Assembly: GCA_029775855.1 (NCBI GenBank)
Contig: JARVJZ010000004.1
Location: 4,901-68,900 of the forward strand
Direction of reading: 5' to 3'
From: Nitrososphaeria archaeon
Lineage (GTDB): Archaea; Thermoproteota; Nitrososphaeria; Nitrososphaerales; JAAOZN01
DNA length: 64,000 bases
Made by a program: the position numbers and the translations under genes. Each line of letters opens with the position of its first letter. Position 1 is the first letter of the stretch. Positions 6,646-28,124 of this stretch are shown here, piece by piece. The notes beneath the pieces are model-generated. The model saw only the letters and a program-made list of their open reading frames with translations, was not told the DNA's origin and made no database searches.

Positions 6646-7260
6646 TCACATTAGTCCGATCTTCTCTTTTATCGCCCTTATCTCAGCTTCTAGCCTTTCA
6701 AATCTTCTATCTATATAGCTTCTTAAATCGTCTCTTAAAGCCCTAATCTCAAATATGGTCTCATCTTGCTTCTTCAAAACGGTTTTTATGTCTCCTTTCA
6801 TCTCCTTTATGTCTCCTTTCATCTCCTTTATGTCTCCTTTCATCTCCTTTATGTCTCCTTTCATCTCCTTTATGTCTCCTTTCATCTCCTTTATGTCCTC
6901 TCTCATCCCTTTGATGTCGCTCCACATCCCTTTCGCATATTTTATAGCCGCAACCATCCTTTCGCTTAACTCCTCCTCTAACGGACCATATTTCACCTCA
7001 AAATATTGGTACTCGCCTGTTGGTGGTGAAGTCTTTGTCACCTCTATTGATTCTACTTTAAGCAGATCTTCTTTAACATCTATAGCCTTCATAAATTCTT
7101 TAACAACCTCTTCTTCGGCTTCGCAAAGGATCTTGACGCTTCCATCTCTCAGGTTTTCCACATATCCTCTGACTCCAAGCCTTCGAGCCTCGTCTTGAAC
7201 TAAGTCTCTGTAGCCTACTCTCTGCACAGAGCCTCTAACTATGATTTCTGCTCTGATCAC
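6646..7260 (-). CDS. Acylphosphatase-like domain protein with C-terminal heptad-repeat coiled coil
   Basis: The N-terminus IVRGSVQRVGYRDLVQDEARRLGVRGYVENLRDGSVKILCEAEEE matches the acylphosphatase fold signature (V.G.VQGVGFR...G.V.N). The C-terminal half contains DIKGMRE, then 5x DIKEMKG, then DIKTVLK, followed by a charged helical tail. Confidence 0.7.
   Translation of the reverse strand: MIRAEIIVRGSVQRVGYRDLVQDEARRLGVRGYVENLRDGSVKILCEAEEEVVKEFMKAIDVKEDLLKVESIEVTKTSPPTGEYQYFEVKYGPLEEELSERMVAAIKYAKGMWSDIKGMREDIKEMKGDIKEMKGDIKEMKGDIKEMKGDIKEMKGDIKTVLKKQDETIFEIRALRDDLRSYIDRRFERLEAEIRAIKEKIGLM
6785..6918. repeat. 21-bp tandem repeat (5 perfect copies plus degenerate flanking copies) inside the CDS
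   Basis: The unit atgtctcctttcatctccttt occupies 6788-6808, 6809-6829, 6830-6850, 6851-6871 and 6872-6892. Degenerate copies follow up to about 6918. The repeat is in frame and encodes DIKEMKG on the minus strand. Confidence 0.95.
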
Positions 7261-7529: not shown

Positions 7530-8171
7530 TTGCTTGACCAAATTTTGTTCGGCTTTGCGGCTGTAGTAGCATTCATACTATCTTGCTCTATTTTGGTTGC
7601 CGTTCTCAAAAATTTATGTATTCACAGGGTGTTATGGCTCTTATCGTTTATTCTGCTCTTTGTCCTAACAACATTGATTTCTCTAAGTGGGTTAGATGTG
7701 ATTAGCGCACCGTTTGTCTATCTTCTGGCATCTCTTATACCAAGTTTCCTAGCTTGTGGCTTGATTTATGCTACGCTTGGATCGCGGTGGGGCAAGTATT
7801 ATCTGACCTATACGCTATTGCTCTTCATAGTATTTACTTACGCTTCAATAGTTGGCGGTATACCAAAAACTCCTCTGATACTGCTCCTTCATGTGCCAAG
7901 TGGTTTTATCATAGTCATTTTACCGTTCGTGGCGGTTGTTCTTAGAATAAGTGAGTTAACAGCTTTGTTTGTCAGTATTGGCGGTCTGTTAATAGGTGTT
8001 GGAGGGGTTGCTTTGGCTACTATCCAATTTGGTGCACCTCTCTTACCGCAAGAGTTAGTAAATATGGTATTTGCTCCTCTTTTCTTAATTGTCACTATTA
8101 TGTTTGCAGCTGGGATGCTCTTAACTAAGAACTGGGGTCGACCAAAAGGGCTTAATGATCTAAGGAGATAG
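7530..8171 (+). CDS. Polytopic membrane protein, unknown function
   Basis: 213 aa, almost entirely hydrophobic helices (about 6-7). TTG start. No family recognised. Confidence 0.45.
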   Translation: MLDQILFGFAAVVAFILSCSILVAVLKNLCIHRVLWLLSFILLFVLTTLISLSGLDVISAPFVYLLASLIPSFLACGLIYATLGSRWGKYYLTYTLLLFIVFTYASIVGGIPKTPLILLLHVPSGFIIVILPFVAVVLRISELTALFVSIGGLLIGVGGVALATIQFGAPLLPQELVNMVFAPLFLIVTIMFAAGMLLTKNWGRPKGLNDLRR

Positions 8172-8199: not shown

Positions 8200-8895
8200 T
8201 TGGTTATAGGCTTGATTAAGGTAGAGGTGCTCTTCACATCGTCAGCTATAGGTACTCAGATTTTACTCAAAGGTGAGGAAGAAGACATTCTTGTAGATGC
8301 AGGAGATGGTGTGCTGAGGGATCTTGTATCAAGAAACTATGACTTCTCCAGGTTAAGTGGTATTTTAATAACACATGAGCATATAGATCACTACTGCGGT
8401 CTTCTCCCCTTATGCTACTTTATGGCTCAGCTTGAGCACACTAAACCACTTAGAATAGTTGCACCTAGTGGGGGTGGGAAAGTGTCTGGTCTAGTTTCTC
8501 TTTCCACTTTGCTCCCTCTCTTAGAGGTAGAACGAGCTAAACCAAACTGTACAATCGTCATCGGTTCATTTACTATTGAGCCGTTCAAGGTTGACCATAC
8601 TGTAGATGCTGTTGGATACGCTGTATCTGACAAAGGGGGCTACAAAGTGGTTGTTAGCGGGGATACAAGAGTGTGTCCTGAACTGGAAAAGCAGTTATCT
8701 AAAGCTAATGTAGCAGTTCTCGATGCAACATTCCCAGATTGTATGGAGTCTGATGCATACCTACACGGGCACATGACCGAGGGACAAGCGTTAAAGATTG
8801 CCGCTTCTGTGGAAGTAAAGATATTCATTCATAAAATGGATCTTAACTACTATAAGAAGATGAGCTGCAGAAAGCGTTCCCCTCTTGAAATCTAG
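8200..8895 (+). CDS. MBL-fold metallo-hydrolase (RNase Z-like)
   Basis: HxHxDH motif (ILITHEHIDHYCG) with later His/Asp positions (KVDHTVDAVGY, SGDTR, LHGHMT). The exact start is uncertain (TTG or GTG). Confidence 0.7.
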   Translation: MVIGLIKVEVLFTSSAIGTQILLKGEEEDILVDAGDGVLRDLVSRNYDFSRLSGILITHEHIDHYCGLLPLCYFMAQLEHTKPLRIVAPSGGGKVSGLVSLSTLLPLLEVERAKPNCTIVIGSFTIEPFKVDHTVDAVGYAVSDKGGYKVVVSGDTRVCPELEKQLSKANVAVLDATFPDCMESDAYLHGHMTEGQALKIAASVEVKIFIHKMDLNYYKKMSCRKRSPLEI

Positions 8896-9601
8896 TCTTT
8901 TTGTGGGCTAAGATGGTGATAGTGTAGAAATTGTAGTTGCTGAGCTTTTTCCAAAGCGCTTTACTCACAACTTTTGCTGAAAGACCGCTTAGATTTATTG
9001 CTTTAAAGTAAGAGTTTTGTGTGATAGCACCTGAGAGGCATCTTGACCATAAAGCTGAGTCCTTCTTATACTCTCTTGGTAAACGTTTGTCGGTAACTAT
9101 ATCAGAAATGACCACTACTCCGCTTCTTTTTAGGATTCTACTCAATTCGCTAAAGACTTTAGATTTAGATTTCGTTAAGTTAATTACACAATTAGAGATT
9201 GCTGCATCTATACAGGAATCTCTTATCGGTAAGTAGGCTATATCTCCCAGAATAAACTCAATCCCTTGCAATCCTCGTTTCTTGCATATTTCTTGTGCTT
9301 CAACCAACATTTTTTCTGTCATATCTACACCTATAACAAGGCTAGATGAGTCAAGTTTCTCTGCGACTTTAGCTAAGTCGTAGCCAGCACCGCACCCTAA
9401 ATCCAATATTCTAATATTTGATGTCGAAGTCATCCCTAGGTTTAGTGTTGGATCACCACAACCGAATGATAAGTTGCTAGTAGAGCTACAGCACGTCTTT
9501 TTTGAGACTAGCGATTCATAAGCAGTTCTTACTGCTAACCTTATGTCTGAACTGTCTGATTGTTTACAGCATCGAGTCAAAGTCAAGATTCTTCTCACCA
9601 T
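8843..9601 (-). CDS. arsM: Arsenite S-adenosylmethionine methyltransferase-like (ArsM family)
   Basis: SAM motif ILDLGCGAGYD. ArsM-type motifs are present: FGCGDPT, VIGVDMTEKML, AISNCVINL, VVVISDIV and W.RCLSGA. N-terminal Cys pairs (CC, CC). Confidence 0.75.
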   Translation of the reverse strand: MVRRILTLTRCCKQSDSSDIRLAVRTAYESLVSKKTCCSSTSNLSFGCGDPTLNLGMTSTSNIRILDLGCGAGYDLAKVAEKLDSSSLVIGVDMTEKMLVEAQEICKKRGLQGIEFILGDIAYLPIRDSCIDAAISNCVINLTKSKSKVFSELSRILKRSGVVVISDIVTDKRLPREYKKDSALWSRCLSGAITQNSYFKAINLSGLSAKVVSKALWKKLSNYNFYTITILAHKKTRFQEGNAFCSSSSYSS

Positions 9602-10316
9602 ATTTAGCCCTAGACTTCATATATGAGTCAATTATCAACCTATACTTACTCATATCTGGGGTATAGCACGGGTATCTAAATCCAACTTGCATAGATGTTG
9701 AAACAGCGGTTTTAAATACAGATGCTATCACCTGTGTCACCTCAGAGCTTGTAGCACCATTTTTTAAAGCCCGCTCGCTAAAGACTTGGATGCCGTGTTT
9801 CCAGCCTTTAACAGCACTTACGGCTAAGCAGAGTAAGTTTTGCAGCCGTTCTTCCAGCGATGTTTTCTGAAATATGATTTTGATTGTTGTTAAAAAATCT
9901 TGGAACCATTTCGGATCGAAATCGAGGAAAGCGAGCATTTTTGCCGGCAAATTAATCTGGTTCGTGTATCCAAAAGACTTCGCATGATCTTGATATTCGA
10001 AGTTAAGTTGCTGAAGTGTATAATCCAAATCAGCTAAGCCAATGATCAAAGAAGATATTCTGATAGCATCATTTATCTCCGCTTCATTAGCTCCTGCACT
10101 AAGAGCTTGATCTACGTGGATCAAGACCCCTGGTTCCCAGAGGTATGCTACTGCTTTACCTAGCCCGATTAGATGCTTTTCCTTAGCTGTAAGTGTGCAA
10201 GAGTGAGGCCAATTTAGAACAGACATTATGTAGGCGTTTACCCATTCGGAGTCATCTATCAAACCTTTAGCCCAAAGATAAGGGGGCACAGGCATCCCAA
10301 TTTTTCTGCTACGCAA
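9564..10316 (-). CDS. AhpD-like / carboxymuconolactone decarboxylase-family protein (two tandem domains, no CxxC)
   Basis: Two segments have the CMD-domain pattern: KHLIGLGKAVAYLWEPGVLIHVDQALSAGANEAEINDAI and LLCLAVSAVKGWKHGIQVFSERALKNGATSSEVTQVI. The usual catalytic Cys positions are not Cys. Confidence 0.55.
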   Translation of the reverse strand: MRSRKIGMPVPPYLWAKGLIDDSEWVNAYIMSVLNWPHSCTLTAKEKHLIGLGKAVAYLWEPGVLIHVDQALSAGANEAEINDAIRISSLIIGLADLDYTLQQLNFEYQDHAKSFGYTNQINLPAKMLAFLDFDPKWFQDFLTTIKIIFQKTSLEERLQNLLCLAVSAVKGWKHGIQVFSERALKNGATSSEVTQVIASVFKTAVSTSMQVGFRYPCYTPDMSKYRLIIDSYMKSRAKYGEKNLDFDSML

Positions 10317-10337
10317 TGGACTCTACATCATTATCCT

Positions 10338-11744
10338 CTACTGTTTTTTATTTAATGTTTTCCAGAACTTGTCTTCTAACCAAGTATTCTTGAAACCTAG
10401 GGTTGTAAGTAAAACCGTCAGAGCCCATAGAATAAGAGTCCTAATGAAGCCTTTTTTCTCAAAGCGTCTAGCTGACACAATAACAGGCGCTTTCACTGTA
10501 ATAAGCCTACCGACCTTCTTAAGTTTTTGTGAAAGTGCTACTCCTTCTTCCATACAATTTTCGTCGAACCCTCCTAGTTGATAAAATAGATGTCTCCTAA
10601 CACAAAAGGCCGCACCAACTCCATGGAGATTAAATATCTTGCTTATCATAAGTCTAACGCTTTTAACAAAATTGTATCGTGTTCTAGGTGGATCATAAAA
10701 TACATCTAGGCTTCCGGCAACTACTGCCTTATCCTGAAAGGACTTAATGACCTCTTCTACTGCTCTCTTTTGTAGCACCATGTCTGCGTGGAGGAATAGG
10801 AGTATTTTACCTCTCGCACCAAAGGCACCTATGTTTTCTTGCATCTTTCTTGAGGCTTTCCCTAAAACAACAACTTTGTCCACAAGATTGGCGGCGGCTT
10901 GTAGCGTATTATCTTCGCTCCCTCCGTCAACTAATATCACCTCAACCTCGTGGTTATCCTTATCTATAGACTTCAAAGCACTTCTAACCCAAAATTCTTC
11001 GTTTAAAGTCGGTATAATTATAGAAAGAGCGTACTTATTGGTAGAAGGAGGCGTTGGGTAAGACATTAGAAAGCGCTCGGTAGCAGTGTTAAGTTTCTTT
11101 CTTCTAAGAGAAACACGTAACAGATCGTCCACATCATCAATATCCATTTTTACATCCAAAATCTTAAACGGTAAAGCGTGAGTGCGCGCATATTCAATCA
11201 AATTGAAACAAACTCGATAAGAATCGTCTAAATTGCTTATACAATTTAGGTCTGTATACCTATTCAGTCCGATCAAATATGCTCCACCATCATGAGTTGG
11301 GCCGATTACGAGCTGCGGTCTTCTGAGATTGGAAGCTGAGACTAAACAATCAAGTGCCATACTTAATGTGGATGCATCTAAATCATCGTGATCTCCAGGT
11401 ATGAGGATAACGGAATCATATCCTTGGTCTATAACCTGTTGGAATGCGTTGCGCACCCGCTCAGTGATATCTGAGCCTACTTGCTCCATAAAAGTTGAAT
11501 AAAAAGACAGGGAACCCAAGGCTTCTTTAAGATTTTTCTGTTTCTCCTTAGGAGTATAGCATATATAGGTAGAGCTGCCCCTTTTTCTGATCACAGCTTG
11601 TATAACAGATGCAGTATCTCTTAGTAGGTGATTATAGAGTTGGTAAGCGTCAATTGCCGTGAATATACCCCAATACTTGGAGATTCTGGTTTTCACTGCA
11701 CCCACTTCGGGAACTTTGGTGAAGAGTATGATAGCTTCTTTCAC
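10338..11744 (-). CDS. Fusion protein: DUF2064/TIGR04282-like transferase (N-terminal) plus TIGR04283-like family-2 glycosyltransferase (C-terminal)
   Basis: The N-terminal part has ILFTKVPEVGAVKTRI, VILIPGDHDDL and VIGPTHDGGAYLIGL, which are DUF2064 hallmarks. The C-terminal part has LSIIIPTLNEE, ILVDGGSEDNT, LFLHADMVL and RRFEKKGFIRTL, a GT2 pattern of the TIGR04283 type. Confidence 0.75.
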   Translation of the reverse strand: MKEAIILFTKVPEVGAVKTRISKYWGIFTAIDAYQLYNHLLRDTASVIQAVIRKRGSSTYICYTPKEKQKNLKEALGSLSFYSTFMEQVGSDITERVRNAFQQVIDQGYDSVILIPGDHDDLDASTLSMALDCLVSASNLRRPQLVIGPTHDGGAYLIGLNRYTDLNCISNLDDSYRVCFNLIEYARTHALPFKILDVKMDIDDVDDLLRVSLRRKKLNTATERFLMSYPTPPSTNKYALSIIIPTLNEEFWVRSALKSIDKDNHEVEVILVDGGSEDNTLQAAANLVDKVVVLGKASRKMQENIGAFGARGKILLFLHADMVLQKRAVEEVIKSFQDKAVVAGSLDVFYDPPRTRYNFVKSVRLMISKIFNLHGVGAAFCVRRHLFYQLGGFDENCMEEGVALSQKLKKVGRLITVKAPVIVSARRFEKKGFIRTLILWALTVLLTTLGFKNTWLEDKFWKTLNKKQ

Positions 11745-11800: not shown

Positions 11801-13120
11801 ATGTTATTGAATATTCAGAAGTATTCGCAAGAGCTGCTAATTCTTAACTGGGGCGTTGTTATCGAGATAGCGCTACTTTTATTTAGATTTTTTACCAGAA
11901 TGGATAGGACTAACCCTTTAACTACGATTTTATTTTATGTGCCGTTTGTACTGTTTTGTTTGGCCTACATTCATCTTACTAAAATGAAAATAATGAGATT
12001 TAAGCTATCATCAGCACTGATACTATTTTTTAGTTTTCTTTTTTCTATTACACACATACTTGATGCGCCGAATTTATCTGATGACCTCTACCGCTACTAC
12101 TGGGATGGTAAAGTCTCCTTTAGTGGTATTAACCCGTATAGTTTTGCTCCTGATTCACCTAATCTCTCCCATTTACGTGATGATTATTGGCTGTTCATAA
12201 ACAATAAGGATTTAACAACACCCTATCCACCTTTCATTATAGCGCTCTGTGCTTTACTCTATTTGCTCTCACCTAGCATCTACAGCTTTAAGGTTCTATC
12301 CGTAGTCAGCTACTTTCTGTCTTCCGTGATTCTTATCTTAATGTTAAGAAGATATAGTCGGAGTCCGTACTACTCCCTTATTTATACATGGAATCCGCTT
12401 ATGGCGATAGAATTTGGGCATAGTGGTCATAATGATTCTGTCGCTGTATTCTTTATGCTTCTTAGCACATTCTTTCTCTCCGCTAAACAGTACAAATATT
12501 CAGCGCTGACGCTTGGAGTTGCTACTTTATCGAAGATCTTCCCAGCTTTATTAACACCATTCTATATAATAAAGTGGAGGCTAAAAGGTATGATCGTCTA
12601 TATATCAGTAGTTATTCTGCCCTATATTCCACTAAGTCTAATAGGCTCCGTACAAACAAGTCTTGTTACTTACTTTGAGAGAATCGCATTTAACGCTGGC
12701 TTCTACTACCTTCTAGAAGCAATAATTTCTTATTTTATTAAAGAAAATGCGGCGCTCTACGCGCGTATCACCATCACTATATTATTTAGTGTATGTCTGG
12801 TCTATATGACCTATAAGTTCAGAGAAAAAGACTTTCTATTTAACGCGTATCTAATAATAGCTGTTTATCTACTTCTCACACCTACCGTGCACCCTTGGTA
12901 TCTTTCTTGGATTCTTCCTTTTGCTGCATTATATGCACCAGAACCTTGGTTGTATTTCTCAGGTGCTATCTTCTTATCCTATTATACATATTCTCTACCA
13001 GAGATATCACCTGGTTTCTGGCCGGAGCAAGTTTGGGTAAGAGCGGTTGAATACATACCGTTTATGCTCTTACTTTTACTTTCATTAAGAAAAGAATTAT
13101 CTGGAGCTAATCGCGGTTAA
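11801..13120 (+). CDS. GT-C-type integral membrane glycosyltransferase (DUF2029/GPI-mannosyltransferase-like)
   Basis: About 11 hydrophobic helices. The first loop carries the Asp-rich motif LSDDLYRYYWDGKVSFSGINPY, typical of GT-C mannosyltransferase-like proteins. Confidence 0.5.
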   Translation: MLLNIQKYSQELLILNWGVVIEIALLLFRFFTRMDRTNPLTTILFYVPFVLFCLAYIHLTKMKIMRFKLSSALILFFSFLFSITHILDAPNLSDDLYRYYWDGKVSFSGINPYSFAPDSPNLSHLRDDYWLFINNKDLTTPYPPFIIALCALLYLLSPSIYSFKVLSVVSYFLSSVILILMLRRYSRSPYYSLIYTWNPLMAIEFGHSGHNDSVAVFFMLLSTFFLSAKQYKYSALTLGVATLSKIFPALLTPFYIIKWRLKGMIVYISVVILPYIPLSLIGSVQTSLVTYFERIAFNAGFYYLLEAIISYFIKENAALYARITITILFSVCLVYMTYKFREKDFLFNAYLIIAVYLLLTPTVHPWYLSWILPFAALYAPEPWLYFSGAIFLSYYTYSLPEISPGFWPEQVWVRAVEYIPFMLLLLLSLRKELSGANRG

Positions 13121-13125: not shown

Positions 13126-14670
13126 TCATTTTTCCTTTCCGCTTTGGATAAATGTAAATATGTTGACAAATGTATATGCAGTGGTATACCAAGCAAGTAT
13201 AGGTATGATTCCAAAGTTTTCTGTTATGAAAGCTATGTAAGAGCTTGTTATGCCAAGAGCTATATAAGCCCATTCTATTAGAACCCTTTTATCAACGGGC
13301 ACATGGTATTTCTTATCTCTCCATTTATCTCCTTTTGACTTCACCGAGTATTTGGGTGTCCTTTTAAACTCCCACCTTCGTTTTAATATTAGACCTTTTA
13401 AAACCTCAATGGTGTTGCTTATACTGATACCGTATCCTATTAAGCCCAAAAGAAGTAGGTTAGGTATATTCCTCAATAAACTCAGTTTTTGTGCGCGCAA
13501 GGCTTCTACATAATAAACCCAAGTAGCGGCTGTACAAAGAATTATGGTAGATGCTAGTAGCATTATGGCTATCTGCTGGATATTTATGGAGCTCACGGTA
13601 GATACAAACTGCTCTGGGCTAGACAGCCCTATTTCACTTATTTGTCTAATAGTTGGTAGAGATATGCTTGTGACACCAGATATACTCGCTATTGATGCGA
13701 GTAAAAAGGCTAGAAACATAAGGAAATGGACGGTATAGTAGGTTAAATGTATGAATCCTTGTATCTTCTGCTTCAGATCTAACATTGGGTTGGATAAGAG
13801 TTTCGGCAAGAGTTTCCGAGCTGTCTGTATGGAGCCGCACGCCCATCTTGCCTGCTGTCTCTTAAAGCTGGTTAAGGTAGGAGTAACTTCACCGTCGACA
13901 CTAAAATCTCTCAAATATAACACCTTATATCCCTTAAGTTGTATCCTATAGCTAGCATCAAGATCCTCTGCTAATGTGTCGCTGTGCCATCCCCCTGCTT
14001 CCAAAAGAGCAGATCGCCTGATTACCCCTGCACTGCCATTAAAATTTAGCAAGCATCCCGAGGCATATCTTCCGGGTTGCTCTATGTAGAAGTGAGCATC
14101 CATTCCGATGGAAACAGATTTGGTAATTGGATTGTAATGCCTGTTTATATGCCCCCATCTACACTGTACAAGACCTATCTTTTCATTTTGGACCATGTAT
14201 GATATAGTTCTGTTGAGAAAATCTTTTGGAGGTGTGAAATCTGCATCGAATATTGCAATAAACTCTTCATCTGTTTTGGAGAGAGCTTCTTGTAGTGCCC
14301 CTGCTTTATACCCTGTTCTATCCTTTCTTCTCAATACTTCGATATTGAAACCATCTCTGGCATATCTTGCTATAAGTGAGTCAACGATCTCTTTGGTCTC
14401 ATCATCAGAGTCGTCAAGAACCATGATTCTAACCAATTGTTTACCATATTGTTCAGCCATAGCGGTGCAGCAGGTAAGGAGCCTACATATCACATACCTC
14501 TCATTATAAATTGGCAGATGTATTGCCACGCGCGGCCTTGAAGATAAACCACTATTGAACGGCATTGAATATTTTCTTGATGCCTTAAGCAGATAGAAGC
14601 AGTTATAACCATAAAAGAAGAATGAGAATGTTACCATTAGAGATGCAATTAACAAGATTCTATCGAACAT
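13126..14670 (-). CDS. Processive family-2 glycosyltransferase (cellulose/chitin-synthase-like, membrane-embedded)
   Basis: D,D,D,QxxRW signature: VLDDSDD, IFDADF, QCRWGH, AEDLD and KRQQARWACGS. There is an N-terminal TM helix and several C-terminal TM helices. Confidence 0.8.
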   Translation of the reverse strand: MFDRILLIASLMVTFSFFFYGYNCFYLLKASRKYSMPFNSGLSSRPRVAIHLPIYNERYVICRLLTCCTAMAEQYGKQLVRIMVLDDSDDETKEIVDSLIARYARDGFNIEVLRRKDRTGYKAGALQEALSKTDEEFIAIFDADFTPPKDFLNRTISYMVQNEKIGLVQCRWGHINRHYNPITKSVSIGMDAHFYIEQPGRYASGCLLNFNGSAGVIRRSALLEAGGWHSDTLAEDLDASYRIQLKGYKVLYLRDFSVDGEVTPTLTSFKRQQARWACGSIQTARKLLPKLLSNPMLDLKQKIQGFIHLTYYTVHFLMFLAFLLASIASISGVTSISLPTIRQISEIGLSSPEQFVSTVSSINIQQIAIMLLASTIILCTAATWVYYVEALRAQKLSLLRNIPNLLLLGLIGYGISISNTIEVLKGLILKRRWEFKRTPKYSVKSKGDKWRDKKYHVPVDKRVLIEWAYIALGITSSYIAFITENFGIIPILAWYTTAYTFVNIFTFIQSGKEK

Positions 14671-14689: not shown

Positions 14690-16090
14690 TTACCATCTTC
14701 TTGATTGAATTAATTGATAAAACATCATAATCAACCCGGTTAAAAACCCAATCAGCATCAGGAAAATACCAAGCTGGATATACGGCATAGCAAAACTACT
14801 ATGCGGCTCAGGATCCAAGAATATATAGAATACGGTGGCTCCAGTCAAAAGAATATAACCAGCAGTCATGAGTGAACCAACGATCTTAATAGAGTGGCCA
14901 ATATTGTTTATTCTTAATAAGGCTAGTAGAAAGAGAGCAACAGCGGTTAGAGTAGCTAAAGCATGCTCATGTCCCAAGATGAACGGAATCTCATTTTTTA
15001 AACCTACAAATTTGTCCAGATGTAAAGCTACATATATGCCAGGTAATGTAACCGCGATGTTTACCCAAAAGAATGTGAAGAGGAGACCAAAAGAAGCGGG
15101 ATCTTTGAATAGATTCTTTATTGGGTGAGCGTGGCTGTTTTCTAACGCTATATCCGCCATAACAGCGTACATAATGAATAGTGAACCTTGTAGTATTATA
15201 GCGCCGCTTGGTGTTATAACGTTATGTGCAGCGACACCTAAGGGAATAGTGGCGTACGTTGATATAGAGACTGCGGGGATGCTTAAAGCTACCATATAAA
15301 GGCCTATATCACCAAATAACCCTCTTGTGCCTTTAAAAGATTGAATATTGAAATGCTTAGAAGCCAAAAATACTACTGCGGCGGCTACAACAGTTACGAT
15401 AGCGTGCCTATGTGCTGCAACTATAATCCTGAATCTTTCGAGTTCTTCCAAGGCTCCCCATTGACTACTCCCAGTACTTGCGTAAAATCCTATTAGTGAA
15501 GTAGATAATACGAAAAAGATGGCGAGCCAGATTCCTATCTTTATGGCCCTCTCCTTTTTCATCGCGTAGATACTTTCTGCTCTAACATTATATCTACTGA
15601 TTGCTAATAGAAGTGATGCTCCTGCTAAGAAAGATAGTGAAAGACCAAAATAAAGTACAGCGTGTGCGATAGGGTTCCATCTTAACATTATGATAGTCCA
15701 GGCGCCCGCCGACGCAGACACGTAACCAATCGTTGCGTTGATTATAGCGTAATCTGCAGCTCTTCCAGTTAAGTTTAGGATATCAATAGAGACATATACC
15801 AAAACGGCTACGAAAGATACAGCCAAAGCGTGATAGAATAGGCTCTCGTAGGTAATCAGCTGTATCAAAGGTATCCTAAGAAGAGCAGTTTGACTAAAAG
15901 GTGGTGAGAAAGAGATCAGTGCTAGAATCTGCGCGAAGATCCATGTTGATGTGATGAAGGTTAGTGCTGTTAGCAGCCCACGCATAGCCAGAATAAGTTT
16001 GTATTCATTAAAAAAGTTTGTTTTGATGAGGCTATTTTGAGCGTGGCTAGGTTGGTGGTTGGGAGAGTATCCTAAGCTGAGGTTGTCCAC
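14690..16090 (-). CDS. Polytopic (about 14 TM) His-rich membrane protein, unknown function
   Basis: 466 aa, hydrophobic throughout, with conserved-looking intramembrane His (FYHALAV, IAHAVLYF, AAHRHAIV, AAHNVI, GHEHALATL). It lies 20 nt upstream of the GT2 gene on the same strand, so it is probably co-transcribed. Confidence 0.5.
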   Translation of the reverse strand: MDNLSLGYSPNHQPSHAQNSLIKTNFFNEYKLILAMRGLLTALTFITSTWIFAQILALISFSPPFSQTALLRIPLIQLITYESLFYHALAVSFVAVLVYVSIDILNLTGRAADYAIINATIGYVSASAGAWTIIMLRWNPIAHAVLYFGLSLSFLAGASLLLAISRYNVRAESIYAMKKERAIKIGIWLAIFFVLSTSLIGFYASTGSSQWGALEELERFRIIVAAHRHAIVTVVAAAVVFLASKHFNIQSFKGTRGLFGDIGLYMVALSIPAVSISTYATIPLGVAAHNVITPSGAIILQGSLFIMYAVMADIALENSHAHPIKNLFKDPASFGLLFTFFWVNIAVTLPGIYVALHLDKFVGLKNEIPFILGHEHALATLTAVALFLLALLRINNIGHSIKIVGSLMTAGYILLTGATVFYIFLDPEPHSSFAMPYIQLGIFLMLIGFLTGLIMMFYQLIQSRRW

Positions 16091-16155: not shown

Positions 16156-17286
16156 GTGGGTTTTGTACGTTCGCTTTTAGCTCTGTTTCTCGCTTTGCTT
16201 GTGAGTGGGGTCTCTACTTCAGCGGTTTTAATTCTTCCTCCTCCTACGCCTCAAGACCCTTTGGCGCCTAAGATTCTTTCTTCTAAGGGGCAGAGTTTAG
16301 ATCCTGTTTTCAGCCCAGACGGTAAGTTCATAGCCTACTCCTCAAATCTTTACGGAGACTTCGACATATGGCTTATGACTGTTGATGGTAGGAATCAAGT
16401 TAGGTTAACTTGCTTAGAAGGAGATGAGAAGAAACCCCAGTTCAGCCCAGATGGAATGAAAATTGCCTTTATACATTCATCTAACTTCGGTGAAGACATT
16501 TGGGTAGTGAATAGAGATGGCTCAAACCCCGTTAAGATAACAAACAATCATACACCAAAAAACAAGTTTGAATGGTCGCCCAATGGGTACCTTATAATCT
16601 ACGACACAATTGTAAACGATAAATGGCAGGTTTGGCTAACTTCTTTGAACAAAGGTATCAATATTTTTGTTGGGGATTCTGAAGAAAGATACGCGCCTTC
16701 TTGGAGCCGCAACGGTAAGTTTGCTATATGTGTAAATAAAGGCGTCAAAGGGTATAGTTTGGAGTTAATAGATGTTTCGACTAATTCGGTTGAAAAAATT
16801 TACACAACATCTGCAGTTATAAAGTATCCAAGTTTCTTTAGTGCTGATGAAAAGATTCTCTTTTTAAGAGGAAACGGTGATTGGAGCGTATATACTTTCA
16901 ACATAGGTAATTCACGCATCACAAATCTATTTGCAGACCCACTAAGGTATTATGCGGGCATACCTTGGACACCCATTTTAGAATCGGAAGTACCTTACGC
17001 TACGAGAACTAAGGCTTCAGAGCTTCTTTTCGTCGGCTACTCTAAACAAGGCGCTGAATTGTTCATATTGTATGATGATATAGAGATAGACTTTAAGGAA
17101 AGAGGTGTAGGTGTTATAAAAGGTTCAATAATTGAGAGATTATTTACAATAGGGCATACAAGAATAAATAGCCTAAGTTGGAGCCAAGATGGTCATAGCA
17201 TCTTACTGTCGTTTACCGAAGGAGGTTATAATATATTATCCTTACTAGTTCTAGAAAAAAAGAAAGTTTCACCTTATGAAAAATAA
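16156..17286 (+). CDS. Secreted TolB-like beta-propeller protein (PD40/WD40-like repeats), paralog 1
   Basis: N-terminal signal or anchor (LLALFLALLVSGVSTSA). Repeated PD40-type motifs: FSPDGKFIAYSS..DIWLM, FSPDGMKIAFI..DIWVV, WSPNGYLIIY and PSWSRNGKFAI. Confidence 0.7.
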   Translation: MGFVRSLLALFLALLVSGVSTSAVLILPPPTPQDPLAPKILSSKGQSLDPVFSPDGKFIAYSSNLYGDFDIWLMTVDGRNQVRLTCLEGDEKKPQFSPDGMKIAFIHSSNFGEDIWVVNRDGSNPVKITNNHTPKNKFEWSPNGYLIIYDTIVNDKWQVWLTSLNKGINIFVGDSEERYAPSWSRNGKFAICVNKGVKGYSLELIDVSTNSVEKIYTTSAVIKYPSFFSADEKILFLRGNGDWSVYTFNIGNSRITNLFADPLRYYAGIPWTPILESEVPYATRTKASELLFVGYSKQGAELFILYDDIEIDFKERGVGVIKGSIIERLFTIGHTRINSLSWSQDGHSILLSFTEGGYNILSLLVLEKKKVSPYEK

Positions 17287-17305
17287 AAAATAGTGGGAAT
17301 AGAGC

Positions 17306-18064
17306 TTACCCATTGTCGTCTCTAGTTAATTCCATAAGTTCCTCTATATTCTTAGGCTTCAGAATCAGCTTATCCTTTAATCTAATTCCCATTGGTATTT
17401 CCTTTATATCATTTAGCGATTTGAAGATTGGTGGGAGAGGCTCTCTCGACCCTAAAAGTAGTAAGGCTTTATCCTCATCGTACGGGATTATCTTCTTCTT
17501 TTCACCCTTTGGTTTGAATACAACTGATGGGTTAGTTAAGCTTGGGTTTGGTAAGTCCTTTAGTTGTTTGACAGAACCATACTTTTTGACTAGATTCTCC
17601 ATTGTATCAAAGTCTAGAGCTCTCATCGGGCAAGCTAAGACGCATACAGGCTTAAGACCTTCTTCAAGTCTATCGATGCACATTGTACATTTATTAGCCT
17701 TAACGTCATTAGCTAACCTATCGCTCTCGTATGTTATGGCTCCATATGGGCAAGCTCGTTGGCAAAGTCTGTAACCTTTGCATTTTTCTTGATCTATCAG
17801 AACCGCGCCGTATTTCTCTTCTTTATATATTGCACCGTTAGGACACGCATCTATACAGACGGGATTACTACAATGGAAGCAGGTTACCCAGCGTATATGA
17901 GTTTTGATATTGGGATAATATCCCTCCTCATATTCGTAGATTCGAAGATATTTTATTGGCCCCGGTTTCAAGTCATACCAATCCTTACAAGCAACTACAC
18001 ACGCCTTGCAGTTAATGCATCTATCTTCGTTAAAGTAGAAGCCATATTGGACCATATCGCTCAC
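17306..18064 (-). CDS. Four-cluster ferredoxin subunit (DmsB/NarH-like) of molybdoenzyme 1
   Basis: Four Cys groups: CINCKACVVAC, CFHCSNPVCIDACP, CKGYRLCQRACP (C-x2-Y-x2-C-x3-CP, a NarH-like 3-Cys group) and CTMCIDRLEEGLKPVCVLACP. It has a C-terminal extension of about 100 aa ending in ELTRDDNG. It overlaps the catalytic gene by 4 nt. Confidence 0.85.
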   Translation of the reverse strand: MSDMVQYGFYFNEDRCINCKACVVACKDWYDLKPGPIKYLRIYEYEEGYYPNIKTHIRWVTCFHCSNPVCIDACPNGAIYKEEKYGAVLIDQEKCKGYRLCQRACPYGAITYESDRLANDVKANKCTMCIDRLEEGLKPVCVLACPMRALDFDTMENLVKKYGSVKQLKDLPNPSLTNPSVVFKPKGEKKKIIPYDEDKALLLLGSREPLPPIFKSLNDIKEIPMGIRLKDKLILKPKNIEELMELTRDDNG

Positions 18065-20736
18065 CTCAACTTTTGTACCTCAACAACACTTGTTACTGGG
18101 AATGAACCAGATGGGCTCATCGAATCATATGTCAACACATTACAAGCACCTCTGCTATCCATGCCAGCTGGGTTTGGTGTAAACCAAGCACCGTGCCAAA
18201 CTGCTACGACGCCAGGCATAATCTTTGCAGTCACATAAGCCGGCAGTATTATTTCACCGCAATCGTTGAATACTCTAACCAAATCACCATCCTTGATACC
18301 TCTAGCTTTTGCGTCAGAGACACTTATCCATACTGAGTGTCGATACGCCTCCTCATCTAGCATAGGGTTGGTATCGTATGCTGTGTGAGATCTGTAGCGG
18401 CTATGCGGTGTTATCATTGTTAATGGATACTTATTTGCCAATGGGCTGAACATCATGTGCTCTGGTGGAATATATTTTGGAATAGGTGGTACATATCCAC
18501 CGTATTTTGTTTTAGTGAGATCAGTTTTAGCCAAATACTCTGAATATATCTCGATCTTTTTAGATGAGGTATTTGCGAAAGGTTTTCCTTCTTTGACTTC
18601 AACGCCATATGAATAAAGTGGTTCTGGAAAATCAAAGTGGTAAACCACTTGCTTCTTGAAGTCTTCCCAGCTAGGTAGGGTTCGCCCAATATTTGCTAGA
18701 CTTTTTGCTCTTGCTTCCCACGCTGCTTTAAGAAGCCTATCTTTAGTTTCTTCCCATTTGGAGTCATCTGTGTAATTGGGGTTGAATTCTTTGAGGAAGC
18801 CCATCTTCTCCGCTAGCTTTGTAAATATCCAATCTGGTTCTTTTGCCTCTCCTTGAGGTTCAACACATTTAGGAGAGTAGACCCACCAGCAACCCGATAT
18901 ATTCCCCCAAGGTGAATCTATAGTTGTAGTTTCAAATGGTGTTTCGACTACTGGTAATATAACATCAGAATACAGTGCAGTAGGTGTCATATGTATTGCG
19001 AAGTTAACGACATAATCAACCTTCTCAAGCGCCTTTACACCCTTTAGAATGTTCATGTTTCTGTTCAGATATTGACCGATTGCGTTAAAGATCATCTTGA
19101 TATTAGGTAAGGGGTTAGTTGCAGGATTACCTATTATGCTATTGTACTGCTCGGCAGTCAACGATTTACCAACCTCGTCTCTAAGAAGTATGGTATCAGC
19201 CCACTTAAACTGCTTAAAAGCTATAATTGTCTTTTGTTTTCCACTTCCACCCCAGCTAGCGCTTGGTGGACTTGGGGCTCTATCGCTCTCAATAGCCCAA
19301 TTAGTGGTGTTAATGTATCCACCCGGTACACCGATGTTTCCAGTTAAAGCTTGAAGCGCTATTGCAGCTCGAGCAACGTTTTCACCGTATTGATTTCTTG
19401 CTGGAGCCCAGCTTTTGAAGAGGCAGACAGGCTTGCTTCTCGCATATAAACGTGCAAAGCTTCGTATGGTTTCAGCTGGCACACCGCAAATCTTTTCAGC
19501 CCACTCTGGAGTTTTTGGTACACCATCCTCAACTCCTGTGACGTAGTCCTTCCACTTCTTAACCCCTTCTGGTTCAACAAACTTTTCGACATATTCTTTA
19601 TCATATAAGTCTTCAGTAAAGAGCACATATGCAACCGCTAAAGCAAAAGCAATATCTGTACCTGGTCGTATTGGGATCCATTGGTCTGCTAGTATGTCTA
19701 TAGTGTTAGTGTATTTGGGATCTATCGCTATTATTGGAGTGCCTTTCTTTTCTTTGATAAGTTTCATAAGATATAAAGTGTTTGTGCCAAATATTGTGTT
19801 TGCAGGGTCGTGCCCCCATAGAACTATTAGATTTGAATTAATCATGTCTGTTGTCTGATGACCTTTACCATAAGTTATACCCAACATATGGTTCTCGCTA
19901 AAGATCTCTGCCTCAAAAGAGCAAACACCCCAGCTATCGACTGTGTCAACAATGTGACTAAAGAATCTTGAGGCTCCTCTCTGCCATATAGAATATGGCC
20001 CATATTTCTCTTTGACTTCCTTAATCATCTTTGCGACTAAATCTAATGCTTCATCCCAGCTAATTCTTACAAATTTTCCCTCTCCTCTCTTTGTGCCCTC
20101 CACTCTTTTCATTGGGTACTTTATCCGATCTGGATTGTATATCCAATATTTCAGTGCACGCCCCCTTACACAAGGACGCTTTTGGACGATCGCGTTTATT
20201 AGCTTGTGATAATCAAGCAACTCATCTTCAATCGCTACGTTTGAATGGAGTAAGTCGTCTCCTTCGATAGCTGTAATAACACCGTTCTTAATTCTTGCTT
20301 TAAGTAGACAACCTCTGCCACCGCAGTTAATTGTGCAACTACCATAGCTTATGGTTTCTTGTTGGTGTTTTGCTGCTAGTTGCTGTTTTATGGCTTCGAC
20401 TCTTTGTTTGATTTCTGGTGATAGGGGTGGTTTTAGGCTTGGTGGTGGGGGTGGTGTTTGAGTTACGGTTGTGGTTGCTGTTTGAGTTACTGTTGCTGTT
20501 TGTGTTACTGGTGTTGTGACTGTCGTTGTCTGTGTTACTGGTGTTGTTACCGTCGCTGTTTGTGTTGTGGTTCTGGTCTGTGTTACTGTTGCTGTGACTG
20601 TCTTTTCAACCTCTCTGATAGGTGTGAGAAGCCTATCAGCACCAACACCAACCGCAACACCAGCTACAGCAGAAGCAGCTAAAGCGCCAGCCCACTTCAA
20701 CATAGAACGGCGAGAAACCTTAACCTCCTCACCCAA
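18061..20736 (-). CDS. TAT-exported molybdopterin oxidoreductase catalytic subunit, DmsA-like, paralog 1
   Basis: Twin-arginine motif SRRSMLKW followed by an h-region. A Thr/Pro-rich insert of about 60 aa comes next. The FS0 motif is CTINCGGRGC...C. DMSO-reductase-family blocks are present (GEGKFVRISWDEALD, IDPKYT, WIPIRPGTD, TGNIGVPGG and the C-terminal GIKDGDLVRVFND). TTG start. Confidence 0.9.
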   Translation of the reverse strand: MGEEVKVSRRSMLKWAGALAASAVAGVAVGVGADRLLTPIREVEKTVTATVTQTRTTTQTATVTTPVTQTTTVTTPVTQTATVTQTATTTVTQTPPPPPSLKPPLSPEIKQRVEAIKQQLAAKHQQETISYGSCTINCGGRGCLLKARIKNGVITAIEGDDLLHSNVAIEDELLDYHKLINAIVQKRPCVRGRALKYWIYNPDRIKYPMKRVEGTKRGEGKFVRISWDEALDLVAKMIKEVKEKYGPYSIWQRGASRFFSHIVDTVDSWGVCSFEAEIFSENHMLGITYGKGHQTTDMINSNLIVLWGHDPANTIFGTNTLYLMKLIKEKKGTPIIAIDPKYTNTIDILADQWIPIRPGTDIAFALAVAYVLFTEDLYDKEYVEKFVEPEGVKKWKDYVTGVEDGVPKTPEWAEKICGVPAETIRSFARLYARSKPVCLFKSWAPARNQYGENVARAAIALQALTGNIGVPGGYINTTNWAIESDRAPSPPSASWGGSGKQKTIIAFKQFKWADTILLRDEVGKSLTAEQYNSIIGNPATNPLPNIKMIFNAIGQYLNRNMNILKGVKALEKVDYVVNFAIHMTPTALYSDVILPVVETPFETTTIDSPWGNISGCWWVYSPKCVEPQGEAKEPDWIFTKLAEKMGFLKEFNPNYTDDSKWEETKDRLLKAAWEARAKSLANIGRTLPSWEDFKKQVVYHFDFPEPLYSYGVEVKEGKPFANTSSKKIEIYSEYLAKTDLTKTKYGGYVPPIPKYIPPEHMMFSPLANKYPLTMITPHSRYRSHTAYDTNPMLDEEAYRHSVWISVSDAKARGIKDGDLVRVFNDCGEIILPAYVTAKIMPGVVAVWHGAWFTPNPAGMDSRGACNVLTYDSMSPSGSFPVTSVVEVQKLR

Positions 20737-20755
20737 ACAACATCAACTCTTGCTC
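20350..20755. repeat. Left arm of a perfect 406-bp inverted repeat (partner at 27719-28124)
   Basis: I compared the reverse complements block by block. The antisense ORFs in the two arms are also identical in the ORF track. Identity ends at 20349/28125 and at 20756/27718. Confidence 0.95.
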
Positions 20756-20771
20756 AGATACACACTATAAG

Positions 20772-20779
20772 TATTTAAA
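20772..20779 (-). promoter_or_regulatory. Candidate TATA box for molybdoenzyme-1 operon
   Basis: The minus strand reads TTTAAATA. It lies 16 nt outside the repeat arm and about 40 nt upstream of the TTG start. This is an archaeal TATA-like sequence read by eye only. Confidence 0.3.
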
Positions 20780-20937
20780 TCTTTCAAATATATGTATAAA
20801 AATTTTAGATAATATTTTTGAACTTAATCTTAAGTAGAAAGGAATATCTAAGTGTATAACGTTCGCTGTAAACTTGCATTACGCGCAATAGCCAAAACAA
20901 TTATCTAAAAGTGTGAGTAAAATATGGTGTATAAAGA

Positions 20938-22347
20938 TTGATAATAGTGTTGGTTAACCCACCTTTTACACTTAGTGAATGTTTCCGAGGTTTTGCAAGA
21001 GTTGGCAGTATACAGCAGCCGCTTGGTCTTGCTTATGTGGCGGCTGTATTGGAGGAGGCTGGGTATAATGTTAAGATTATCGATTCGCCGGTGTTAGGAC
21101 TGAGTTTACAAGAGACTGTCGAGACTGTCATTAGAATGAGACCAGATGTCGTCGGAATTACTGCCACCACTCCAACTTTCAATAGGGCTATTAGCTTAGC
21201 AGAAAGTCTAAAGAAGGTAGCTGATATACCACTAGTTATCGGTGGGCCGCATTCTACTACACTCCCTGATGAAACCCTAGCCCTTTCCTGCTTTGATATA
21301 GCGATCATAGGCGAAGGTGAATACACAATGCTTGAATTACTTAAATGCTTGCAAAAAGGTACATCTTTATACGAAGTTAAAGGGATAGCGTTTAAAGAAA
21401 GGGGACAGATAGTAAAGACTCCTCCTAGAGCATATATAGACGACCTAGATGCGCTTCCTTTTCCAGCGCGCCACCTCCTTCCACCTTTAAAGTATTATCA
21501 CCCTACTCCTTCTGCTTATCGCTCATTACCACAGGCTACAATGATTACAAGTAGAGGTTGCCCCTACCAATGCACCTTCTGCGACCGTTCAGTATTTGGA
21601 AACAAGTATAGAGCAAGAAGTCCCAAGAATGTAGTTGAAGAAGTTGAAGAACTCGTCTACGAATATAGGGCAAAAGAAGTGAGGTTTTGGGACGACACAT
21701 TTAACATCAACAGAAAAAGAGTTCTAGAGATTTGTAGAGAAATGCGGATGCGAAGACTAGACATAAGCTGGACATGCCTATGTAGGGCAAACTTAGTAGA
21801 TGAAGAAATGTTACGTGAAATGGCCAAGGCTGGGTGTTGGCAAGTAGAATATGGCATAGAATCCGGTAACGAGGAACTTCTTAAAAAGATCGGTAAGGGA
21901 ATTACTCTCCAACAAATTAAGGGCGCAGTAGAAAAAACTAAAGCCGCGGGTATGAAGGCCCGAGGTTTCTTTATGCTGGGCTTACCTGGTGAAACTGAGC
22001 AGACTCTCAGACAGACTATAATCTTCGCAAGGTCCTTAAAGCTGGATGCTGCTGTCTTCCACATTACGATCCCCTTTCCAGGAACAGACCTATATCTAAG
22101 CGCTGTCTCCAGTGGCGAACTACGCACTGACTTAAACTACCAATATTATTTGATGTTTGGCTCAGATGAAGTCCCATATATACCAAAAGGGTTAACTAAA
22201 GAAGTACTCTTGAAGTATCGGTCAATAGCATATAAGTCATTTTATCTAAGGCTAAGTTATATGCTAGAACAGTTAGCTTCTGCAAGATCTCTTAAAGATT
22301 TATTTCGATACCTACTTGGTTTTATAACCCTAGCGCGCATCGAGTGA
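20938..22347 (+). CDS. B12-binding-domain radical SAM protein (class B)
   Basis: The N-terminal part is a cobalamin-binding-like domain (LGLAYVAAVLEEAGYNVKIIDSP...VGITATTP). The radical SAM motif is SRGCPYQCTFCD. TTG start. Confidence 0.8.
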   Translation: MIIVLVNPPFTLSECFRGFARVGSIQQPLGLAYVAAVLEEAGYNVKIIDSPVLGLSLQETVETVIRMRPDVVGITATTPTFNRAISLAESLKKVADIPLVIGGPHSTTLPDETLALSCFDIAIIGEGEYTMLELLKCLQKGTSLYEVKGIAFKERGQIVKTPPRAYIDDLDALPFPARHLLPPLKYYHPTPSAYRSLPQATMITSRGCPYQCTFCDRSVFGNKYRARSPKNVVEEVEELVYEYRAKEVRFWDDTFNINRKRVLEICREMRMRRLDISWTCLCRANLVDEEMLREMAKAGCWQVEYGIESGNEELLKKIGKGITLQQIKGAVEKTKAAGMKARGFFMLGLPGETEQTLRQTIIFARSLKLDAAVFHITIPFPGTDLYLSAVSSGELRTDLNYQYYLMFGSDEVPYIPKGLTKEVLLKYRSIAYKSFYLRLSYMLEQLASARSLKDLFRYLLGFITLARIE

Positions 22348-22354
22348 GCCTAGT

Positions 22355-23044: not shown

Positions 23045-23062
23045 CCTGATCTAACTTCCTTC

Positions 23063-25106: not shown

Positions 25107-25109
25107 ATC

Positions 25110-27626: not shown

Positions 27627-27691
27627 TACAAGCCTATCTTTTATATTTTTCCTTGGTTGTCGCTAAATTTTTTGTTTATTTTGTTTAAATA

Positions 27692-27700
27692 TTTATATAT
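27692..27700 (+). promoter_or_regulatory. Candidate TATA box for molybdoenzyme-2 operon
   Basis: TTTATATAT lies about 19-27 nt outside the repeat arm and about 40 nt upstream of the TTG start at 27738. Read by eye only. Confidence 0.3.
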
Positions 27701-27718
27701 TAGCTCTACTTTGATTTA

Positions 27719-28124
27719 GAGCAAGAGTTGATGTTGTTTGGGTGAGGAGGTTAAGGTTTCTCGCCGTTCTATGTTGAAGTGGGCTGGCGCTTTAGCTGCT
27801 TCTGCTGTAGCTGGTGTTGCGGTTGGTGTTGGTGCTGATAGGCTTCTCACACCTATCAGAGAGGTTGAAAAGACAGTCACAGCAACAGTAACACAGACCA
27901 GAACCACAACACAAACAGCGACGGTAACAACACCAGTAACACAGACAACGACAGTCACAACACCAGTAACACAAACAGCAACAGTAACTCAAACAGCAAC
28001 CACAACCGTAACTCAAACACCACCCCCACCACCAAGCCTAAAACCACCCCTATCACCAGAAATCAAACAAAGAGTCGAAGCCATAAAACAGCAACTAGCA
28101 GCAAAACACCAACAAGAAACCATA
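27719..28124. repeat. Right arm of the perfect 406-bp inverted repeat (partner at 20350-20755)
   Basis: Same evidence as the left arm. It covers 19 nt of 5' leader plus codons 1-129 of the gene. Confidence 0.95.

Follow-up and report, generated by a model that had tools for sequence, protein, structure and literature searches.

Arsenosugar biosynthesis in bacteria is associated with a gene set comprising the radical S-adenosylmethionine (SAM) enzyme ArsS (TIGR04167), the methyltransferase AsSugarArsM (NF038099) and the families TIGR04282, TIGR04283 and TIGR04169, found in the order DUF2064, small CMD, ArsS, ArsM, GT2 in Bacteroidota (L054, L057, L058 and L066 among the loci surveyed below) and in Gammaproteobacteria. 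The committed first steps are methylation by ArsM and then adenosylation by ArsS, which converts dimethylarsinous acid, DMAs(III), to 5'-deoxy-5'-dimethylarsinoyl-adenosine (DDMAA), and only these steps are established (PMC13598754). No report of arsenosugar clusters or of the pathway in archaea was found in the literature searched. Here we describe three adjoining genes that resemble this set, on a stretch of 64,000 nucleotides from a Nitrososphaeria archaeon (assembly GCA_029775855.1, contig JARVJZ010000004.1, positions 4,901 to 68,900 of the forward strand), which is called the window throughout and in which coordinates are counted. The genes encode a two-domain transferase (DUF2064-GT2), a tandem CMD/AhpD-fold protein (CMD2) and a short ArsM-type SAM methyltransferase.

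An earlier note, made from the sequence alone, had likened this trio to the bacterial arsenosugar set. The likeness is borne out, in that the top NCBIfam match of each protein is the corresponding arsenosugar or arsenite family and homologues of four of the five component types are present; unlike the bacterial set, the proteins all score below cutoff and ArsS is missing from the window. In our view the trio lies at the core of a module conserved among archaea. This module is a diverged sister to the bacterial set and falls outside the named families by their cutoffs. Its proteins are homologous to the arsenosugar families and probably work in a related way. Our preferred reading, held tentatively and with slightly less than even confidence, is that the trio and its partners form a divergent organoarsenical glycoconjugate module related to the arsenosugar clusters.

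The three genes and their families

The trio occupies three consecutive minus-strand open reading frames (ORFs) at 8843-11744, exactly as first described, with a 21-nt gap between the transferase and CMD2 genes (10317-10337) and a 38-nt overlap between the CMD2 and methyltransferase genes (9564-9601). Alternative starts are possible for CMD2 (ATG at codon 8) and for the methyltransferase (TTG at codon 8), and the tight packing is unaffected by the choice. An AT-rich TATA-like element, located by visual inspection only, stands approximately 34 nt upstream of the fused transferase gene. The tight spacing and the TATA-like box fit a single operon, transcribed as one unit. The window is collinear with three NCBI assemblies, and with 99% protein identity it matches a metagenome-assembled genome (MAG) labelled 'Nitrososphaerales archaeon' (P0001); the locus is present in the MAGs GCA_038880655.1, GCA_038871015.1 and GCA_038883255.1. 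Rfam and tRNA scans of the window returned no matches.

The domain assignments of the earlier note hold for all three proteins, and every motif that it listed was found. In the transferase, whose motifs are ILFTKVPEVGAVKTRI and GPTHDGGAYLIGL, the N-terminal half is DUF2064 (PF09837, 65.8 bits against a cutoff of 25.8, residues 48-168) and the C-terminal half GT2 (PF00535, Glycos_transf_2, 59.7 bits, residues 241-358). An AlphaFold (AF2) model of the protein has a pLDDT of 91.7 and two GT-A domains. The N-terminal half matches PDB entry 3cgx, an uncharacterised DUF2064 structure (E 3e-16), with a target-normalised TM-score of 0.83 in Foldseek; by the same method the C-terminal half matches PcManGT, GpgS and WrtF, and the protein in its entirety can be aligned with K4CP and LARGE1, enzymes that have two GT-A domains. 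Residues D273, D278, H319, D321, E399 and E400 of the GT2 half are invariant in the archaeal alignment.

The union of the two transferases in one polypeptide had been singled out as unusual. We reject it as a novel feature, since 117 of the 120 best homologues carry DUF2064 followed by GT2 in a single chain. Some 80 of these are bacterial, and many bacterial fusions already bear the names 'TIGR04283 family arsenosugar biosynthesis glycosyltransferase' (NCBI) or 'rSAM/selenodomain-associated transferase 2/1' (JGI). The window protein resembles these in domain order and length (425-460 residues, against 468 here) and is approximately 30% identical to them over 93-100% of the query. In both halves, though, the archaeal proteins stand apart as a clade, and they keep other genomic partners; among bacterial fused loci ArsS is adjacent in only three of ten. 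Some bacterial proteins of approximately 650-720 residues have three domains, an NTP_transf_3/CofC-like domain preceding DUF2064 and GT2 (P0042, P0047, P0055, P0063 and others). In neighbour-joining (NJ) trees the GT2 halves of archaeal fusions form a separate clade with 100% support, not clustered with ArsS-context or bacterial family members, and the DUF2064 halves likewise form an archaeal clade with 100% support, apart from ArsS-context TIGR04282 proteins and from bacterial fusions. The fused protein belongs to a distinct archaeal subfamily.

The methyltransferase, in which Pfam detects class-I methyltransferase domains, is a short form without the ArsM C-terminal domain and, unlike its counterpart in the bacterial set, is nearer to generic ArsM than to AsSugarArsM. 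Its best PDB matches are the ArsM structures 5evj and 4fr0, and the four conserved ArsM cysteine positions are kept (the CC pair, GCG, SNCV and WxxC[LI]SGA, the last three reading here FGCGDPT, SNCVINL and WSRCLSGA), which upholds its designation as an ArsM-type enzyme. Cysteines C48, C138 and C188 align with the GCG, SNCV and C[LI]GGA cysteines of the ArsM structures, and the C37/C38 pair aligns with the conserved CC of ArsM proteins from the bacterial clusters; we take the conserved positions to be C44, C72, C174 and C224 of CmArsM. The same positions are kept in ArsM-like genes of distant archaeal clusters, and for those of loci L091 and L015 ArsM is again the best family (182 and 227 bits). 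The second-best family of all three methyltransferases is the ArsM/AhpD fusion NF041537. Binding of As(III) by these cysteines, and As(III) methylation, are predicted from the residues conserved.

CMD2 matches the CMD family (PF02627) in two stretches, at 45.1 bits, and Foldseek places its structure model with 2q0t, a tandem CMD protein (E 2e-6), and with AhpD (1gu9). The position of the AhpD-type CxxC reads WxxG in both halves (LWEPG and GWKHG), whereas the bacterial ArsS-cluster proteins are single-domain and have CPYC; because WxxG replaces CxxC in both halves, AhpD-type redox chemistry is ruled out. The protein is accordingly double and without CxxC, as had been noted; contrary to the earlier note it is not devoid of cysteine, having three (C40, C163 and C217), which are invariant across its family. 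That family is tiny: a profile search found only eight representative clusters at E<=1e-30 among 1.84 billion (1.84e9), followed by a sharp drop in score. Next come, as full-length relatives, tandem CMD domains that form the C-terminal part of ArsS-family fusions and also lack CxxC (in P0255 the ArsS part scores 373 bits against the TIGR04167 cutoff of 300), and the profile also picks up the small CPYC-bearing ORF between DUF2064 and ArsS in bacterial clusters.

The ArsM/AhpD-domain fusion is a selenoprotein that a review (PMC13188914) lists after Haft & Tolstoy 2025; TrsS is listed there too. This fusion and the ArsS-tandem-CMD fusions (P0255 and P0257) resemble the window in pairing a CMD/AhpD-fold module with an organoarsenical enzyme, and the ArsS-fused CMD domain shares with CMD2 its tandem form, the lack of CxxC and an invariant W-E; they differ in that CMD2 is a separate gene, with WEPG in place of CxxU or WEYC. 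The ArsS fusion that scores 373 bits is one of three same-strand ArsS paralogues, which stand within approximately 8 kb at locus L128 (1802-9797, GCA_016214845.1), the first two adjacent. All exceed the TIGR04167 cutoff (383, 394 and 373 bits); only for the third is a tandem CMD domain, without CxxC, part of the chain, and no DUF2064, GT2 or ArsM gene lies nearby.

Recurrence of the gene set and the case for arsenic

The order and conserved residues of these genes, their family relationships and the recurrence of the gene set are matters of observation. Recurrence was followed in 130 loci, whose ORFs were scored with the window proteins and with archaeal ArsS; archaeal counts refer to 12 non-redundant lineages with usable flanks around the fused gene. 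CMD2 and a B12-binding radical SAM (B12-rSAM) protein each accompany the fused gene in six of the 12, and the large GT2, the Tes/TrsS-like radical SAM (rSAM) protein and the metallo-beta-lactamase (MBL) protein, the last beside the fused gene or module, in five each; orthologues of the B12-rSAM are contiguous with the fused gene, and those of the Tes/TrsS-like rSAM with the module. A GT87-like GT-C is no further than 1-40 nt from the fused gene in four lineages (and additionally in L129 and L130), and an ArsM-like gene is found within 5 kb of it in four. In L086, L091, L098 and L130, whose fused proteins are 34-35% identical to that of the window, the genes are contiguous within approximately 8 kb in the order fused gene, GT87, B12-rSAM, CMD2, MBL, ArsM-like, Tes-like rSAM, and all of these types are present in the window too. 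Since these gene types recur contiguously with the fused gene in distant lineages, both rSAM genes in the window are probably members of one module with it; the earlier note had rightly assigned them to families other than ArsS and had missed this membership. The same is probably true of the MBL, GT87-like GT-C and large GT2 genes found there.

The ArsM-like gene is associated with the fused gene in three arrangements across its four lineages, and chance is therefore unlikely. This bears on whether the trio is a functional unit at all, for ArsM alone suffices for arsenic methylation in many organisms and most archaeal lineages with the fused gene have no adjoining ArsM-like gene; the methyltransferase, perhaps with CMD2, could be a stand-alone arsenic-detoxifying gene that happens to follow an unrelated glycosyltransferase gene. 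We consider this very improbable, given the independence of the three arrangements, the overlapping and tightly spaced same-strand genes, which point to co-transcription, and the fact that CMD2 follows the fused gene even where an ArsM-like gene is missing (L011, L078 and L017).

ArsS is found near the fused gene in one of the 12 lineages. Locus L014 has a bona fide ArsS (352 bits, above the cutoff of 300) 3 kb from a fused gene whose product is 82-83% identical to those of L091 and L130, and it is collinear with these two except for a missing 7-kb block that runs from GT87 to the Tes-like rSAM. The 2-Mb contig L127 shares this extended syntenic region and has ArsS in it, approximately 9 kb beyond the same Sulf_transp gene. 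Because ArsS shares its syntenic region with module-bearing relatives, ArsS and the module are not mutually exclusive in this lineage. The surroundings of both ArsS genes are odd for an arsenosugar enzyme: in L127 (2182-12187) ArsS and a BioB-like rSAM stand beside molybdate transport (ModABC), MoaA/D/E/C and MoeA genes, and in L014 (4426-14361), which like L127 is of a Bathyarchaeia-like lineage, the same pair stands beside MobB, TatA and FdhD. Among the 120 best homologues of an archaeal ArsS, most of which carry no organism label, none is labelled Nitrososphaerales.

Several observations speak for arsenic. In the trio, the ArsM cysteines are kept, and arsenosugar or arsenite families are the top matches of all three proteins. 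There are two Rosetta-stone relationships, CMD2-like domains being fused to ArsS and the ArsM/AhpD fusion being the second-best methyltransferase family. As for the fused gene, ArsS lies 3 kb away in L014 and is syntenic in L127, and relatives carry the ArsM/CMD2/rSAM block at that place.

A number of results weigh against an organoarsenical role. NCBIfam membership was judged by the curated cutoff of each model, and no member of the trio attains it. The DUF2064 half scores 112.5 bits against 134 for TIGR04282 (residues 5-208, model positions 1-189 of 189) and the GT2 half 156.8 against 182 for TIGR04283 (residues 240-456, model positions 1-217 of 221), so that the membership of these families expected by the earlier note falls by its own test. 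The methyltransferase scores 176.8 against 263 for NF008823 (ArsM; model positions 30-239 of 272) and 78.5 against 400 for AsSugarArsM NF038099, and CMD2 34.4 against 120 for TIGR04169, in its second half only. The functions of TIGR04282 and TIGR04283 were themselves assigned on genome context rather than experiment, and no experimental work on TIGR04282, TIGR04283 or TIGR04169 was found in the literature searched. Archaeal DUF2064 halves join standalone Chloroflexi DUF2064 proteins with 100% bootstrap support, not ArsS-context proteins, in trees that are NJ with 40-50 bootstraps and small samples.

On the same side stands the gene content of these loci. No ArsS, an rSAM protein with a DUF3641 domain, was found in the 64-kb window by phmmer or by six-frame tblastn with archaeal ArsS at E<=1e-3 (-8.8 to +52 kb from the trio), as the earlier note had seen, nor in the flanks of 11 of the 12 archaeal lineages, L014 being the only archaeal locus in which these searches detected it. 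The ArsM-like gene is missing nearby in eight of the 12, and the resistance genes arsR, acr3 and arsC are absent from the window annotation. The molybdenum enzymes of the window were considered as arsenate reductase or arsenite oxidase and rejected, ArrA scores being 84-131 bits against 1600 and none scoring as Aio. Bacterial DUF2064 genes, too, have ArsS in their vicinity at just 16 of 60 loci; its non-adjacency alone therefore says little and is not the peculiarity that it had been taken for.

Neighbouring genes and other readings of the locus

The genes around the trio that enter into the argument are listed in Table 1. The further glycosyltransferases and the three enzymes of the dimethyl sulfoxide (DMSO) reductase family that had been reported next door are all present.

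Table 1. Positions in the window of the trio and of the neighbouring genes discussed.
Feature	Position	Strand	Remarks
Two-domain transferase (DUF2064-GT2)	10338-11744	minus	468 aa, GTG start
Tandem CMD/AhpD-fold protein (CMD2)	9564-10316	minus	250 aa, TTG start
Short ArsM-type SAM methyltransferase	8843-9601	minus	252 aa, ATG start
MBL-fold hydrolase (RNase Z/PhnP-like)	8200-8895	plus	Pfam and NCBIfam; convergent with the methyltransferase; recurrent module member
GT87/MptA_B-like GT-C membrane glycosyltransferase	11801-13120	plus	Pfam GT87, MptA_B_family; divergent from the fused gene
Large membrane GT2 (Glyco_transf_21/cellulose-synthase-like)	13126-14670	minus	514 aa
DmsA/YnfE-like molybdopterin oxidoreductase	18061-20736	minus	Associated neighbour, one of three
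B12-binding radical SAM protein (HpnJ/BchE-like)	20938-22347	plus	Pfam; 9 kb away
Tes/TrsS-like radical SAM protein	33261-34586	minus	21 kb away

The Tes/TrsS-like rSAM carries an N-terminal HMPTM Zn-ribbon and two CxxxCxxC motifs, and matches TrsS (NF045646) over its full length (348.7 bits, cutoff 490) and Tes (NF045702) over model positions 2-312 of 486 only (330.5 bits, cutoff 450). The B12-rSAM matches HpnJ best (244 bits, cutoff 578), and the large GT2 has a weak match to HpnI. We also considered the rSAM pair as Gms and Gmm; Gms was rejected, being a SPASM/COG4001 protein and not an HMPTM-Zn-ribbon protein of the Tes family (PMC11214058).

These matches give substance to a reading in which arsenic has no part. 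Tes-family and B12-rSAM enzymes are established modifiers of archaeal lipids (PMC8941075, PMC11214058) and HpnJ forms the hopanoid cyclitol ether (PMC13459092), and the locus could accordingly be a membrane glycolipid or envelope glycan module, in which the rSAM enzymes modify isoprenoid lipids or head groups (in the manner of Tes, Gmm or HpnJ/Cds), a glycosyl head group is assembled by the DUF2064-GT2 protein together with the GT-C and the large GT2, and the substrate of the ArsM-like methylation is a thiol, a lipid or a sugar instead of As(III). The hopanoid side-chain pathway (HpnH, HpnG, HpnI, HpnK and HpnJ; PMC13459092) offers a mechanistic analogue, since an adenosylating rSAM, a GT2 and a B12-rSAM there act on a sugar; it differs in its hopanoid substrates and in having neither an arsenic nor a DUF2064 component, and the window proteins score far below the cutoffs of its families. 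In favour of this reading, the fused gene is most often accompanied by CMD2 and the B12-rSAM, next by the large GT2 and the Tes-family rSAM and then by the GT-C, the ArsM-like gene is missing near the fused gene in the eight lineages counted above, and the GT2 half resembles the polyprenyl-phosphate mannosyltransferase PcManGT. Yet the methyltransferase keeps the full As(III)-binding cysteine set, which generic methyltransferases are without, CMD2 has relatives fused to ArsS, one lineage has ArsS in synteny with the fused gene, the best hidden Markov model matches of the fused protein are arsenosugar-associated families, and the Tes/TrsS-like rSAM is neither a Tes protein that passes the cutoff nor a Gms. 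On balance we judge an arsenic-free glycolipid or glycan module unlikely, while granting it a real chance.

The three catalytic subunits of the DMSO reductase (DMSOR) family are encoded at 18061-20736, 25110-27626 and 27738-30428, in a region (16156-32318) that also holds FeS subunits, NrfD and a NarJ-like chaperone. All three resemble either DmsA/YnfE or type-II DMSOR enzymes; the first scores 507 bits against a TIGR02166 cutoff of 778, and 96 against 1600 for ArrA. Of two paralogous PD40/TolB-like beta-propeller proteins (16156-17286 and 31200-32318), each has a DmsA/YnfE-like enzyme as its neighbour. DMSOR-family enzymes are encoded no more than 10 kb from the fused gene in approximately eight of the 12 archaeal lineages and at all nine Chloroflexi loci with the nearest DUF2064 relatives (L026, L027, L039, L040, L064, L065, L071, L072 and L104). 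The Chloroflexi cluster consists of a PhnP-like MBL protein, a PhsA/DmsA-like molybdenum enzyme, an FeS subunit, an HdrD-like protein, a TrsS-like rSAM, a second molybdenum enzyme and a standalone DUF2064. It shares with the window the MBL, TrsS/Tes-like rSAM and DMSOR-enzyme partners, and unlike the window it has no GT2 domain, GT-C, CMD2 or ArsM-like gene.

The module might, on this evidence, be an accessory or maturation system for the molybdenum enzymes, the DUF2064 clade, with its MobA/CofC-like GT-A fold, and the TrsS/Tes-like rSAM, which is MoaA-related, modifying their cofactor or substrate. Besides the frequency of DMSOR enzymes, the tree that unites archaeal and Chloroflexi DUF2064 speaks for this, as do the position of Chloroflexi DUF2064 directly after a molybdenum enzyme and the TrsS-like rSAM, the MobA-like, MobB, TatA, FdhD and NarJ-like genes that flank the fused gene in L007, L009, L014, L129 and L130, and the ModABC and MoaACDE-MoeA genes beside ArsS in L127. 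We nevertheless find it quite improbable: maturation of the molybdenum cofactor has no role for a GT2 domain, a GT-C, a large GT2 or an ArsM-type enzyme, these families figure in no known step of it, and the molybdenum gene families vary by lineage (DmsA/YnfE-like or Psr/Phs-like), suggesting shared islands rather than one dedicated partner.

Other features of the window deserve mention. A double rhodanese gene (32393-33256, plus strand) lies tail-to-tail with the Tes/TrsS-like rSAM gene, and its product has a sub-cutoff match (83 against 200 bits) to ExtH, the rhodanese of a selenite/tellurite reduction operon. A 466-residue protein (14690-16090, minus strand) and a 213-residue membrane protein (7530-8171, plus strand) have no Pfam or NCBIfam match and are kept beside the cluster in close relatives only (59-99% identity). 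The acylphosphatase gene at 6646-7260 (minus strand) specifies C-terminal KEMKGDI heptads by means of a 21-bp repeat of 6.4 copies (6785-6918); the repeat copy number is polymorphic, because the protein is 183, 197 or 204 residues long in near-identical MAGs. Further away, an archaeal type IV pilus-like locus (35729-41231, minus strand) comprises a T2SSF-like membrane protein, a T2SSE/PilB-like ATPase, unannotated ORFs and a pilin that carries an archaeal class III signal region, and at 58058-60161 divergent genes for a LarC-like nickel-insertion protein and a LarB-like AIR-carboxylase-family protein suggest biosynthesis of a nickel-pincer cofactor of the lactate racemase type.

A proposed working and its bearing

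For the organoarsenical module that we prefer, a working scheme can be proposed in which arsenic as the substrate, like every chemical step, is what we infer from the families involved. The short ArsM-type enzyme would bind As(III) through its conserved cysteines and methylate it with SAM. A radical SAM enzyme would then make the next As-C bond, being either an ArsS encoded elsewhere or the Tes/TrsS-like and B12-rSAM enzymes of the module. The DUF2064 half of the fused protein, which has a nucleotide-diphospho-sugar-transferase fold, may process or activate the sugar moiety, and the GT2 half would transfer it, probably to a membrane acceptor of the polyprenyl-phosphate type or to a small one, after which the GT87-like GT-C and the large GT2 could carry the product further. 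CMD2 would be an accessory protein without CxxC redox activity, possibly binding the substrate or As(III) through its three invariant cysteines.

A bolder form of the scheme dispenses with ArsS. The Tes/TrsS-like rSAM and the B12-rSAM would replace it, linking a carbon of a sugar or isoprenoid lipid to methylated As(III), and the DUF2064-GT2 protein, the GT-C and the large GT2 would then build an undescribed archaeal membrane arseno-glycoconjugate of the arsenolipid or arsenosugar type. DUF2064 would on these terms be a general partner of radical SAM enzymes, TIGR04282 accompanying ArsS and the archaeal and Chloroflexi clade the TrsS-like proteins. An ArsS-independent route of this kind strikes us as distinctly unlikely.

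The analysis defines a compact, conserved archaeal gene set, consisting of a short ArsM, a CxxC-less tandem CMD, a two-domain transferase, a GT-C, a large GT2, an MBL protein and two non-ArsS rSAM proteins, and it shows a second context for the DUF2064 family, with TrsS-like rSAM proteins and molybdenum enzymes. The roles of the DUF2064, GT2 and CMD partners in arsenosugar biosynthesis rest on gene context, and if the product of the archaeal module is not an organoarsenical, the automated 'arsenosugar' names given to DUF2064 and GT2 proteins over-reach. If it is, complex arsenic biochemistry would extend to anaerobic Nitrososphaerota and to Bathyarchaeia-type archaea, and a second enzyme that forms As-C bonds could emerge.

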